A program made the position numbers and the translations under genes. This document shows positions 3,601-7,652 of a stretch of 64,000 nt of DNA, piece by piece. Where the stretch lies: positions 101,807-165,806 of the forward strand of contig CAWHIX010000007.1 in the NCBI GenBank assembly GCA_963829545.1. Direction: 5' to 3'. This stretch comes from an uncultured Actinomycetes bacterium. Lineage in GTDB: Bacteria; Actinomycetota; Thermoleophilia; RBG-16-64-13. A model generated the notes under the pieces. That model worked only from the letters and a program-made list of their open reading frames with translations, made no database searches and had not been told where the DNA came from. Positions within the stretch are counted from its first letter, which is position 1; every line of letters begins with the position of its first letter.

Positions 3601-3666
3601 GCCCGCGCGGGGGCTATCGTTCGAGCTGCGAAGTCACGATTCTTCCACGATAGCCCCCGCGCGGGC
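3601..3666 (+). repeat. Conserved-loop palindrome, copy 1
   Basis: Perfect 20-bp arms GCCCGCGCGGGGGCTATCGT (3601-3620) / ACGATAGCCCCCGCGCGGGC (3647-3666); loop TCGAGCTGCGAAGTCACGATTCTTCC. Confidence 0.92.
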
Positions 3667-3924
3667 TGGCAAGAATTCCGGTTTCGGCTGTGGCGTCCTG
3701 TGCCGCGTGGATGCGTCTGCCTGTCGAGTTGTCCCGCTGAATGGAACACGGTGCCAAAATATGCCCCGACCACTGGCGGCGTTGGCTTCAATCATGGATA
3801 ATCGCCACGATGGGATTAGCAGTACCGTATCTCTTCCCCTCTTGCAGACCCGCGTGCGACAGGCGTGTCTGGCGCCCTCCCAGGGCCGGATGTTGTCATG
3901 ATGATCTGACCAGAAAGGTGTTTG

Positions 3925-6900
3925 ATGGCTAACACCACCGCAATGATGGACGGCAATGAGGCCGTCGCCAACGTCGCGTACAAAGTCAACGGTGTCATCG
4001 CCATCTACCCCATCACTCCCTCGAGCCCCATGGCCGAGCACTGCGACGCCTGGAGTGCGCTCGGCAAGAAGAACCTCTGGGGGGTCGTCCCCAACATCGC
4101 CGAGATGCAGTCCGAGGCCGGCGCCGCTGCAGCCGTGCATGGCGCTCTGCAGGCCGGGTCGCTCTCGACCACCTTCACTGCCAGCCAGGGGCTCATGCTC
4201 ATGATCCCCAACATGTACAAGATCGCGGGCGAACTCAGCCCGACCTGCTGGCACGTGACGGCCCGCTCGCTCGCCGCCCAGGCGCTCAGCATCTATGGGG
4301 ACCATCAGGACGTCATGGCCGTGAGGCAGATCGGCTTCGCCCTCCTTGCCTCCAACTCCGTACAGGAGGCCCACGACCTGGCCCTGGTGGGCAGCGCCGC
4401 CACCCTCAAGGCGCGGGTGCCCTTCATCCACTTCTTCGATGGTTTTCGGACGTCGCACGAGGTGCAGAAGCTGGAACTCATCGGCGACGAGACCATCCGG
4501 GACATGATCGACGACAAGCTGGTGATCGCCCACCGCCTGCGGGCCATGAGCCCCGACCGCCCCACCATCCGCGGTACCAGCCAGAACCCGGACGTCTACT
4601 TCCAGGGTCGGGAGGCCGTCAACCAGTACTATCTGGCCATCCCGGGCATCGTCCAGGAATACATGGACCAGTTCGCCGCCCACACGGGCCGGCAGTATCA
4701 CCTCTTCGACTACGTGGGCGCTCCCGATGCCGAGCGGGTGATCGTCCTCATGGGCTCAGGTGCGGAGGCCGCGCACGAGACCGTCGAGCATCTGGTGGCC
4801 CGGGGCGAGAAGGTGGGGGTCGTCAAGGTGCGCCTCTACCGGCCCTTCTCCATCGAACACTTCCTGGCGGCGTTGCCTCCGACGGTCAAGCGCGTCGCCG
4901 TGCTCGACCGCACGAAGGAACCGGGTGCGGGGGGCGAGCCCCTCTACCTGGACGTGGTCGACGCCCTCTCCGACTCGGAGTTCGAGGCCAAGGTCATCGG
5001 GGGCCGGTACGGTCTCTCCAGCAAGGAGTTCACCCCGGCCATGGTCAAGGCCGTCTTCGACGAACTGGCCAAGGACAAACGCAAGAAGCACTTCACCGTG
5101 GGCATCAACGACGACGTCACCCACATGAGCCTGGAGTACGACGAGAACTTCAGCACCGAGCCGGACTCCGTGATCCGGGCCCTCTTCTACGGCCTGGGCT
5201 CCGATGGCACCGTGGGCGCCAACAAGAACTCCATCAAGATCATCGGCGAGGACACCGAGAACTACGCCCAGGGCTACTTCGTCTACGACGCCAAGAAGGC
5301 CGGGGTCATGACCGTCAGCCACTTGCGCTTCGGCCCCGAACCCATCCGCTCGTCCTACCTGGTCAACAAGGCCGACTTCATCGCCTGTCACTTCTGGGCG
5401 TTCATGGAGCGTTTCGACCTGCTCGCGGCGGCCGTGCCCGGGGCAACCTTCTTGATCAACGCTCCCTATCCCACCGACGAGGTTTGGGACAAGCTGCCCA
5501 GGGACATGCAGCAACGCATCATCGACATGAAGCTCAAGCTGTACGCCATCAACGCCTTCGAGGTGGCCAAAGAGACGGGCATGGGCGGACGAACCAACAC
5601 CATCATGCAGACCTGCTTCTTCTACCTCTCGAACATCCTCCCCCAGGACGAGGCTATCGCGGCCATCAAGAAGGCCATCGAGAAGACCTACGGCAAGCGG
5701 GGCGAGAAGGTCGTGCAGATGAACTTCAACGCCGTGGACAAGGCCATCGCCGCGCTCCATGCTATCTCCGTCCCGGCGGCGGCTACCAGCCAAATCACGA
5801 GGCCGCCGGTGGTTCCGGGCGAGGCGCCCGAGTTCGTGCGCACGATCACCGCCGCCATCATGGCCGGCCGGGGCGAGGAGCTGGCCGTCAGCGAGATCCC
5901 GGCCGACGGTGTCTGGCCCACCGACACCACCCAGTGGGAGAAGCGCAACATCGCCCTCGAGATCCCCGTGTGGGAGCCCGACCTCTGCATCCAGTGCGGC
6001 AAGTGCTCCTTCCACTGCCCGCACGCCACCATCCGCACCAAGGTCTACGGTCCGGCGCTCCTGGCCGGCGCGCCGGCGACCTTCAAGTCGGCACCGGCCA
6101 AAGGCAAGGACTACGCCGGCATGAACTGGACGGTGCAGGTGGCCCCCGAGGACTGCACCGGCTGCGGACTGTGCATCGAGGTCTGCCCAGGCAAAGACAA
6201 GAGCGACCCGAGCCGCAAGGCCATCAACATGGCCTTCCAGCCCCCGCTGCGCGAGAGCGAGCGCGACAACTTCGAGTTCTTCGAGACCATCCCCTACATC
6301 GACAGATCCCTGGTGCGGGTGAACGGCGTCAAGGGCAGCCAGCTTCTCGAACCCCTGTTCGAGTATTCGGGAGCCTGCGCCGGTTGCGGGGAGACTCCCT
6401 ACGTCAAGCTCCTCACTCAGCTCTTCGGCGACCGACTGCTCATCGGCAACGCCACGGGTTGCTCCAGCATCTACGGGGGCAACCTGCCCACCACGCCCTA
6501 CGCCAAGAATGCCGACGGACGGGGTCCCACCTGGAACAACTCCCTTTTCGAGGACGCGGCGGAGTTCAGCTATGGCCTGAGGCTCTCAGTCGACAGGCAG
6601 ACGGAGCTCGCCCAGGGGCTTGTGAACACTTTCCGAGATATCGCCGGCGATGGGCTGGTCGACGAGCTTCTTGCGGCCACGCAGATCAACGAAGCCGAGA
6701 TCGCGGCCCAGCGTGCCCGCGTCGCCGAACTCAAGAAGCGCGTAATGGCCGCCAAGGAGGCCGATCCCAGACTCACGGCGCAAGTACGACGAGATGTACG
6801 TAGCCGCCGATTTCTTGGTCAAGAAGAGCGTCTGGGGCGTCGGGGGCGACGGCTGGGCCTACGACATCGGATACGGCGGATTGGACCACGTCCTGGCATC

Positions 6901-7582
6901 CAACCGAAACATCAACCTGCTGGTCTTGAACACCCAGGTCTACTCCAACACCGGCGGCCAATGCTCCAAGGCCACCCCCATGGGAGCGGTGGCGCTCTTT
7001 GCCGCCGGCGGAAAGCTCATCGGCAAGAAAGACTTGGGCAGCATGGCCTGCACCTACGGCAACATCTACGTGGCTCAGGTGGCCATGGGCTACAACGACG
7101 CCCAGACCGTGCGCGCCTTCGTGGAGGCCGAATCCTTCGACGGACCGAGTCTGATCATCGCCTACAGCCACTGCATCAACCAGGGCATCGACATGACCAA
7201 GGGGTACGATCAGCAGAAGGCGGCCGTGGAGACAGGTTCATGGTTCTTGTGGCGCTTCGATCCGCGCCTTGCCGCGCCGGGCAAGAACCCCTGGCAGATA
7301 GACATGAAAGAGCCTTCGCGTCCGGTGACCGACTACGCCTACAGCGAGAACCGCTTCAACATTCTCAAGAAGTCCCACCCGCAGACGGCCGATATCATCA
7401 TGGCTCGGGCGCAGAACCACGTTTGGACGCGTTGGGAGATCCTCAAGCAGCGGGCGGCCATCACCTATTCTTCGGATCTGCCGTTCGAGACCGGTGTGCT
7501 TCGCGAGGAGACCACGGCCGCGGCCGGCGAGGTCACGGGGATCAAGACCGGCGTGAACATGCCGGCGGGGGGCCCCTGCTAG
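3925..7582 (+). CDS. nifJ: Pyruvate:ferredoxin (flavodoxin) oxidoreductase, copy 1; frameshift near 6780-6795
   Basis: MDGNEA, YPITPSS, two 4Fe-4S motifs (CIQCGKC..CP, CTGCGLCIEVCP), [18 protein letters not shown]; C-terminus continues in ORF 6794..7582. Confidence 0.93.
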
Positions 7583-7586
7583 GAAG

Positions 7587-7652
7587 GCCCGCGATAGGGC
7601 TTCCGCTCCAGCTGCGAAGTCACGATTCTTACGCGGAAGCCCTATCGCGGGC
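7587..7652 (+). repeat. Conserved-loop palindrome, copy 2
   Basis: Perfect 20-bp arms GCCCGCGATAGGGCTTCCGC (7587-7606) / GCGGAAGCCCTATCGCGGGC (7633-7652); loop TCCAGCTGCGAAGTCACGATTCTTAC. Confidence 0.92.

Follow-up and report, generated by a model that had tools for sequence, protein, structure and literature searches.

The 64,000-nucleotide (nt) stretch of DNA analyzed here (hereafter the window), which is part of contig CAWHIX010000007.1 from an uncultured Actinomycetes bacterium of the Thermoleophilia, carries a lineage-restricted family of hairpin elements of about 66 nt that are maintained by selection. Each element combines a long stem of free sequence with a conserved, structured center, and is typically placed directly behind the stop codon of a gene. 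The selected hairpin is the one formed by the strand antisense to that gene. As to function, our leading candidate, which we hold tentatively and at somewhat less than even chances, is a strand-asymmetric RNA hairpin that would act at the gene boundary to stop antisense or read-through transcription from entering, the center serving as a putative factor-binding or stability module. Its action at the RNA level, the barrier function and the binding of a factor are the parts of this proposal that we infer.

Members, anatomy and position of the element

We call the strand reading TCCAGCTG... the C-orientation and its complement, GGAAG..., the G-orientation, and term a stem flush if it begins within a few nt of the adjoining feature. 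A covariance model built from nine copies and run on the window recovers four members, all inside its first 20 kb; the other matches listed for the model are the reverse strands of these four and generic G+C-rich hairpins scoring at most 20.5 bits. Two members lie on the plus strand in the C-orientation. The first, 3' of recO (positions 3601–3666, 86 bits), has perfect arms of 20 base pairs (bp) at 3601–3620 and 3647–3666 around a 26-nt center (3621–3646). The second, 3' of a pyruvate:ferredoxin oxidoreductase (PFOR) gene, PFOR-1 (7587–7652, 89 bits), has perfect 20-bp arms at 7587–7606 and 7633–7652 around a center of the same length, and has same-site copies in the related loci L005, L006 and L010/L020. 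A first-pass annotation of the window had described these two copies, and its description stands in nearly every detail: the arms are 100% complementary, each center differs at one position from TCCAGCTGCGAAGTCACGATTCTTCC (a 26-mer with 0 matches in 100 shuffles), and the left arms agree at 14 of 20 positions with all the differences (positions 8, 9, 10, 16, 17 and 20) mirrored on the right. The elements begin, as it stated, 4–6 nt after a stop codon, namely 6 nt after that of recO (3592–3594) and 4 nt after that of PFOR-1 (7580–7582). The TGG which it saw following both copies is true of the window, but the same-site copies of relatives have TGC and the detail is not conserved. Its two copies are likewise real, but the family is larger, for two minus-strand members had been overlooked. 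One is a diverged element 3' of guaB (7740–7809, 45.6 bits) with 18-bp arms, in which two A·C mismatches on the minus strand correspond to G·U on the plus strand, and with a center of 34 nt in which the apical helix is extended to 6 bp. The other (19937–20008, 83.8 bits; hereafter copy four) has arms of 23 bp, which contain one C·C mismatch and are unrelated to those of the other copies, and a center with one change (A12 to G).

All copies share one fold, in which the 26-nt center is a structured module under a variable apical hairpin. Proceeding outwards from the stem in the C-orientation, the center comprises a 3x3 internal loop (UCC/UCC), a 2-bp helix (AG/CU), another 3x3 loop (CUG/AUU), a second 2-bp helix (CG/CG) and a hexaloop, which occurs as AAGUCA, AGGUCA, AAUUCA or UAUUCA. 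In place of the hexaloop, L005 and L010 have a 3-bp helix capped by a tetraloop, and the guaB copies an apical helix of 5–6 bp with compensating changes. The invariant part consists of two 10-nt strands, TCCAGCTGCG and CGAT(T/G)CTTCC—on the folding strand, the module 5'-GGAAGAAUCG / CGCAGCUGGA-3' surrounding a small variable hairpin. TCCAGCTGCG is unchanged in all intact copies, the exception being the cut-off third unit of a tandem array in L003, which reads TCCAGCCGCG; similarly, the exceptions to an invariant CAGCTG among the aligned intact copies are confined to decayed or truncated ones. The stem is 18–23 bp long in all intact copies and free in sequence. The fixed single-stranded loop envisaged in the first-pass annotation is therefore not borne out, its place being taken by two short internal loops, two 2-bp helices and the variable apical hairpin. 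Nor is the logic of the element reversed, as had been proposed by comparison with other palindromes: conserved unpaired bases together with co-varying stems are the usual mark of a structured nucleic acid.

Several other identities for the center were considered and rejected. It lacks the tandem G·A arrangement that defines K-turns, loop-E and tRNA-like motifs. A promoter is contradicted by the lack of any sigma-70-like match, the sole −35-like hexamer falling in the variable apical loop. A small open reading frame (ORF) on the complementary strand, with GGAAG as ribosome-binding site followed by GUG (MTSQLE...), was discarded because L005, L010 and the guaB variants do not retain the GUG, and because the encoded peptides vary in both length and sequence.

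The position of the element follows a rule: in the C-orientation, it lies closely behind a same-strand stop codon, with a gap of 2–8 nt and one overlapping copy. Beyond the two gaps given above, the distance is 4, 8 and 7 nt behind PFOR-1 in L005, L006 and L010, 3 nt behind guaB, 2 and 6 nt behind a 634-amino-acid (aa) ORF and corA in L002, and 6 nt behind rplL in L003, while in L014 the stem overlaps the recO stop codon. Read in the G direction, the element ends 2–9 nt ahead of the next feature at every independent locus with resolved context, this feature being the complement of a stop codon (recO, PFOR-1, guaB, the 634-aa ORF, corA and rplL) or, for copy four, a TPP riboswitch. Copy four is the only one whose G-orientation runs along the upstream gene: it lies 57 nt past the stop codon of a second PFOR gene, PFOR-2, and ends 9 nt before the riboswitch. 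TATACT (20010–20015), a near-consensus −10-like box, stands in that gap immediately after the element. Convergent gene pairs have one element per stop codon at two loci, in the window and in L002, and the 79 nt between two stop codons in L010/L020 are taken up by a single element. Hairpins below −35 kcal/mol at a stop codon are found, among about 35 genes of the window, only at the element-bearing ones. In L003, the element stands directly after rplL and upstream of a probable rpoB, which argues against a strong terminator in the sense direction. For the copy L001A, no convincing upstream ORF was found; a region of about 1.8 kb adjoining the elements of L001 (4550–6400) has neither an ORF with coding-like codon-position G+C nor an Rfam match.

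The phyletic spread is narrow. The exact core AGCTGCGANGTCACGATTCTT occurs in 1 of 185,579 GTDB species genomes, an uncultured Actinomycetes bin with three copies (L001/L002), and directly after rplL in a soil metagenome contig (L003). A further match in an A+T-rich metagenome (L004) has no palindrome and was treated as chance. The recO and guaB neighborhoods of related Thermoleophilia contigs supplied same-site copies and one new copy. Searches of viral, phage and plasmid sequences gave no match to the element, and nothing relevant was found in the literature on the sequence or on Thermoleophilia repeats.

The folding strand, covariation and selection

Mismatches in the intact stems reveal which strand is kept foldable. 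On the C-orientation, that is, the gene-sense strand, they comprise 15 A·C, 0 G·U and two transversion mismatches, so that every transition-type mismatch is a G·U pair on the G-orientation. Both inferred directions of mutation, G to A and T to C on the C strand, are present; hence, a single mutational bias does not explain the pattern. When folded as RNA, the G-orientation is equally or more stable in 13 of 13 elements, with a gain of 0.1 to 14.7 kcal/mol, and interrupted stems all turn into continuous helices. DNA parameters give a strand bias of the same sign and smaller size. The center is asymmetric too, its mismatches being purine·purine on the G strand and pyrimidine·pyrimidine on the C strand, a difference worth about 2.4–5.2 kcal/mol in 4 of 5 copies without A·C in the stem and 0.1 kcal/mol in w_recO. 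The excess of A·C over G·U and the greater stability of the complement together indicate that the strand selected to fold is antisense to the abutted gene. The hairpin of the sense mRNA, which the first-pass annotation took as the functional form, is accordingly not supported: 15 of 15 transition mismatches are A·C on that strand, and the complement is up to 14.7 kcal/mol stabler.

Sequencing error was rejected as a source of this bias, given that the positions recur in independent assemblies. The A·C positions are shared among the duplicate copies L001A, L001B and L002m, and also among same-site copies of different genomes (the guaB element of the window and of L005); one A·C is found in L014, which comes from a JGI short-contig assembly and is presumably based on short reads. 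The window, L001/L002, L005 and L006 are apparently long-read assemblies, judging by contig names and split genes, with several frameshifted genes in the window and L005. A systematic error is nevertheless unlikely because the two arms present the same local sequence on opposite strands and a context-dependent error should strike both.

The stems co-vary over almost their entire length. In the C-orientation, 18 of 20 stem pairs show two-sided changes and none shows one-sided changes; in the G-orientation, double compensatory changes are seen in 19 of 20 pairs, with 97.3% of the cells paired and 10 G·U cells in an alignment of 11 sequences, a level of covariation reached by none of 500 shuffles. 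Selection on the element in place was assessed at the PFOR-1 3' site by comparing the window with L005, L006 and L010. The center is 77–92% and the arms 70–85% identical to the window, as against 60–66% for third codon positions in the last 150 nt of PFOR and 57–62% for the adjoining spacer (L005 and L006 only). Since both center and arms exceed third codon positions and adjacent spacer, both are under purifying selection in place. Two suggestions of the first-pass annotation thereby gain support: the stem is a scaffold of free sequence, its arms being maintained by compensatory change, and the center is the conserved part, itself also under selection.

Retention differs from site to site. All four fetched relatives with a readable PFOR-1 3' site have the copy there, its arms carrying compensated changes (e.g., TTCCGC, CTCTC and CTCGC adjoining the center). 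At the guaB 3' site, the window and L005 have an intact copy, L015–L017 a partly decayed one, L006 and L021 a decayed one, and L010 none. The recO 3' copy is intact in the window only: L005 and L006 retain a remnant of left arm and center without the right arm, L007 has a decayed copy, and L013, despite 94% identity in RecO, has no intact one. In L014 (RecO 91% identical), there is instead a new copy whose left arm consists of the last recO codons and the stop (GGCCACTGAGTAGCTCCCTC) and whose right arm is an inverted copy of the left; a 5'-truncated copy of the window type follows. Hence, as seen in this single contig, local sequence can serve as the template of an arm, the simplest route being template switching at the palindrome. 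A fold-back assembly artifact is unlikely there because the inverted copy stops after 20 nt and has a mismatch. In L003 (150–390, minus strand as printed), a tandem array with a period of 102 nt comes after the rplL element; center and right arm are 45/45 identical between its units, the 57-nt spacers have diverged, and the third unit breaks off 14 nt into the center. L001 has a second, decayed copy 117 nt away. Across the genome bin (L001, L002) and the soil contig (L003), five copies have centers identical at 26/26 positions and unrelated arms.

The recO–guaB interval and other features of the window

Two of the elements enclose PFOR-1, and the first-pass annotation raised the possibility that they had mobilized or duplicated it. 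recO (2878–3594, plus strand), with RecO_N and RecO_C domains in its homologs, ends just ahead of the first element; PFOR-1 (3925–7582, plus strand) follows in two frames with a frameshift near 6767–6774, its true stop being the TAG at 7580–7582 and not the end of the 1251-aa ORF; and guaB, encoding IMP dehydrogenase (7813–9294, minus strand), is convergent with it. The recO–guaB interval is a hotspot of gene content (window 3595–7812; L007 10718–10849; L012 10721–10789; L015 2998–6537). It holds PFOR in the window, L005, L006, L010 and apparently L013, where an ORF at the contig end has the PFOR start sequence, and no gene at all in L007–L009 and L012. In L015/L016, it contains five unrelated genes, namely those for a periplasmic binding protein, a glyoxalase, an ECF sigma factor and two proteins of unknown function, and the shorter contigs L017 and L018 show the start of the same arrangement. 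Mobilization or duplication of PFOR-1 by the elements is not supported by this comparison: L013 apparently has PFOR without an intact element after recO, the junctions of PFOR-less relatives are not defined by elements, and no recombinase or transposase gene is present among the window ORFs scanned. A PFOR-1 cassette between two direct copies was rejected in view of the upstream remnant in L005/L006, the lack of PFOR in L007/L012 and the five genes in L015. The bracketing of PFOR-1 looks coincidental.

Between the two convergent elements 3' of PFOR-1 and guaB lies a perfect 8-bp G+C palindrome, GGCGGCGC-GCTA-GCGCCGCC (7665–7684, unstranded), which is not a family member; it has counterparts of differing length in L005 and L006. 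PFOR-2 (16159–19879, plus strand) is a paralog about 78–86% identical to the L006 PFOR, with copy four downstream. The TPP riboswitch (20018–20120, plus strand, 67.9 bits) precedes a gene for thiamin pyrophosphokinase (20202–20840), and a cobalamin riboswitch (60835–60999, minus strand, 65.4 bits) lies upstream of a minus-strand gene at 59583–60689. Both PFOR genes are split, PFOR-1 running in frame 1 to 6774 and frame 2 from 6767, and PFOR-2 in frame 1 to 17586 and frame 2 from 17591 (a frameshift near 17586–17591); the PFOR and IMP dehydrogenase genes of L005 are split likewise. These frameshifts are probably assembly indels rather than signs of pseudogenes. Probable further cases of the same kind are Lon protease (32635–34877, minus strand), with its AAA and substrate-binding domains and its Lon_C domain in two overlapping ORFs of different frames, and a UPF0182 ORF (36736–37599, minus strand) that matches only the last 133 of 770 profile positions. 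An RtcB RNA ligase ORF of 630 aa (29841–31733, minus strand) matches its 426-position profile in three stretches, which could reflect an insertion, an intein or a frameshift; it adjoins a trio of radical-SAM, LigB (Memo-like) and AMMECR1 genes (27139–29742, plus strand).

Described families and possible functions

The element belongs to no named family. It is of the gene-end palindromic hairpin kind, and its nearest analog is the mycobacterial TRIT. In keeping with the first-pass annotation, feature and Rfam comparisons give no match to a described REP, MITE or Rfam family: the only passes at Rfam 15 gathering thresholds in the window are the TPP and cobalamin riboswitches, and nothing passes in L001, L002, L003, L010 or L014. 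The best sub-threshold match on the element, to the mycobacterial small RNA G2 (28.6 bits against a threshold of 70), covers the arms of one copy only and was rejected as chance arm similarity; the other sub-threshold matches are generic microRNA-precursor hairpins. TRITs are restricted to Mycobacterium, with a conserved stem sequence and about 147 mostly bidirectional copies per genome (PMC3152330, Gardner et al. 2011). They are centered near −8 at the stop codon, and binding of a host factor has been proposed (PMC3152330); their predictions overlap only 2–4% of mapped 3' ends, and their function is unproven (bioRxiv 10.1101/2022.06.01.494293). The present family resembles them as a lineage-restricted actinobacterial hairpin family without a canonical U-tract and in its narrow position at stop codons, the start here lying 2–8 nt after the stop with one overlapping copy. 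It differs in its free stems, conserved apical module, apparent handful of copies and strand-specific pairing, and in a host that RecO homologs mark as related to Thermoleophilia rather than Mycobacterium.

Other gene-end hairpins are more distant. REP, BIME and REPIN elements are extragenic palindromes at gene ends, in 3' untranslated regions (UTRs), which can attenuate transcription, protect mRNA and affect the upstream gene when near its stop codon; in some REPs, a G·T mismatch marks the active strand. The elements described here share with them the extragenic gene-end palindrome, but the spacers of REPs and REPINs vary, a RAYT gene is linked to them, and their copies number tens to hundreds per genome, as compared with four in the 64 kb of the window and three exact cores in the one GTDB genome that has the core. 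REP arms are conserved and carry a GTAG or CGTC tag (PMC3733652). The arms of independent copies of our family are unrelated, with no tag at a fixed position, and neither the scanned ORFs of the window nor the genes called in the fetched loci include a RAYT (Y1 transposase). With intrinsic and bidirectional terminators the element has in common the G+C-rich hairpins between convergent genes, and orientation-dependent terminator strength can arise from G·U versus A·C pairs. However, its stem of 18–23 bp contrasts with about 5–14 bp, it has no U-tract, its conserved center of 26–35 nt stands against a free loop of 3–8 nt, and one intergenic region here holds two opposed copies plus a third hairpin. 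A terminator scanner found no canonical intrinsic terminator, whose short G+C stem would have a U-tract within 2 nt of it, at the element sites. As for MITEs, the termini vary between copies and no copy has a flanking direct repeat. Finally, template switching at quasi-palindromes (Ripley; Lovett), in which one arm is copied from the other or from the flank, would explain palindromes that are instantly perfect and grow outwards, as in L014; being a mutational process, it leaves the conserved center, the strand bias and the positional rule unexplained.

Against this background, we favor, with the reserve expressed at the outset, a one-way transcription barrier, or a hairpin forming 3' ends, that would act at the RNA level. 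A polymerase arriving from the 3' side of a gene—through read-through of a convergent neighbor or noise from a divergent promoter—would make the G-orientation RNA, which would fold into an uninterrupted helix at the boundary of the protected unit, stabilized by the G·U pairs and the purine·purine mismatches of the module. At copy four, the incoming transcription would be read-through of PFOR-2 towards the riboswitch-controlled operon, and the element may insulate the riboswitch leader. The gene's own transcript would carry the weaker complement, with A·C pairs and pyrimidine·pyrimidine mismatches, and a ribosome terminating 2–8 nt ahead of this sense hairpin would keep it open, so that sense transcription (rplL to rpoB, recO to PFOR) could pass. 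New copies would arise by local duplication and the stems would be kept perfect by compensating changes, the correction plausibly being templated by the palindrome during replication. A putative host factor may also dock on the module, as its strict conservation suggests.

A number of observations weigh against such a barrier. The terminator scan and direct reading reveal no U-tract after the stem in either orientation, the tails being UGGCAAGA and UGGUAUGU for the sense strand and CUUCCUAG for the complementary one. A barrier has no obvious need for a 10+10-nt module conserved to the base; it is because the barrier alone leaves this conservation unexplained that we add a putative role in factor binding. 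The recO, rplL and L001A copies have no co-directional gene upstream in the G direction, where the source of incoming transcription is thus an assumption. Where the stem is perfectly Watson-Crick, as in two copies of the window, the sense direction is nearly as stable. Lastly, the sample of about nine independent loci is small, and most of the mismatch data come from contigs that are apparently long-read, as judged by names and frameshifted genes.

The most serious rival, though in our estimate an unlikely one, operates at the DNA level: the bottom strand would fold as single-stranded DNA and be the substrate of a putative trans-acting recombinase or HUH-type nuclease recognizing the center. 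Such a site would be attC-like with the conserved part at the apex rather than the base, and would spread by copying of the center, with arms taken from local sequence. The resemblance to integron attC sites, which falls short of membership, lies in the location directly after an ORF in fixed orientation, in the folded strand being the complement of the upstream coding strand, and in a conserved fold on variable sequence. The possible local templating of the L014 arm, the half-matched or truncated copies and tandem arrays (L003, L001B and the second L014 copy), the identical centers on unrelated arms in L001–L003 and the variable gene content between recO and guaB point in the same direction. 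However, attC sites conserve the R''/R' and L''/L' boxes at the stem base and vary at the apex, the reverse of what is seen here; the core (RYYYAAC ... GTTRRRY) is not found, there being no GTT/AAC and the stem bases differing from copy to copy (GCCCGCG.., CAGTCGG.., GGGAGGT.., GGGGCAG..). Direct reading shows neither a conserved cleavage-type core at the stem base nor a target-site duplication. The scan of window ORFs and the genes called in the loci yielded no integrase, transposase or HUH gene, nor any cassette array, and the flanking recO, guaB, rplL and corA are core genes in conserved order. The orientation tracks the neighboring gene rather than one direction of replication, with two copies per strand within 20 kb; copy number appears very low; the presence of PFOR does not follow the elements; and the stability asymmetry is greater with RNA than with DNA parameters. 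Persistence at the same site under purifying selection with compensated arms is beyond what selection for mobility can do.

Rather unlikely, in our judgment, is the model of the first-pass annotation, in which a sense hairpin in the mRNA of the upstream gene would act as a 3'-UTR stabilizer or terminator presenting the center to a protein. Its appeal lies in the positional rule, as 7 of 8 independent copies have the orientation of the gene ahead of them and either overlap its stop codon or lie at most 8 nt behind it, and in sense-strand tails that are moderately U/G-rich, e.g., UGGUAUGU; moreover, stop-proximal hairpins affect the upstream gene in REPs. They are also typical of mycobacterial TRITs (PMC3152330). 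However, an RNA selected to fold on the sense strand would show the opposite of the 15 A·C against 0 G·U, and the sense hairpin is the weaker one by up to 14.7 kcal/mol. In L002p, the sense strand barely beats shuffles (z = −1.5 versus −3.65, DNA parameters). Furthermore, a strong sense terminator after rplL would cut off rpoB, and copy four is oppositely oriented.

We regard as doubtful, more so than either of these alternatives, a self-propagating DNA of which only the center of about 26 nt is carried behind a stop codon. The 20-bp arms would then be made by fold-back copying of the flank, as the L014 copy, with the end of recO for an arm, suggests, and the bottom-strand hairpin would be the substrate of a putative enzyme; each insertion would therefore start out as a perfect palindrome, with arms of its own and the same center as all others.

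A further model, very unlikely in our view, has oppositely transcribed copies pairing through their complementary 26-nt centers or the self-complementary CAGCUG and thereby coupling the fates of their mRNAs, as copy four in the PFOR-2 3' UTR might do with the copies behind recO, PFOR-1 and guaB, in the manner of plasmid antisense control loops. Both orientations relative to transcription within one genome, the conserved center on free stems and the invariant CAGCTG of aligned intact copies would fit, but just one of about nine loci has the "regulator" orientation, the copies behind recO, guaB and others are, by their G·U pattern, themselves selected to fold on the antisense strand, and the associated genes have no common functional theme. 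Least probable of all is drift of a functionless duplicated quasi-palindrome kept perfect only by replication template switching: purely Watson-Crick stems in several copies, decay in some lineages (recO 3' in L005, L006 and L007, with none intact in L013; guaB 3' in L006 and L021) and the flank-templated L014 arm would suit it, but center and arms are better conserved than third codon positions and adjacent spacer, and the strand-specific G·U pattern and the positional rule would be unexpected.

If the one-way RNA barrier is correct, a G+C-rich lineage with few canonical terminators would possess a device dedicated to protecting gene ends against antisense transcription and marked by its sequence. 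The family would offer a handle on termination and insulation in Actinomycetota, where TRIT-like motifs stay unexplained, and its module would point to an RNA-binding factor not yet described. The use of G·U versus A·C to strengthen a hairpin on one strand and weaken it on the other would then be a clean natural instance of strand-specific design. If, instead, the elements act as DNA, they would constitute a new architecture of recombination site. Under either reading, they provide a compact test case for separating RNA-level from DNA-level selection on palindromes.

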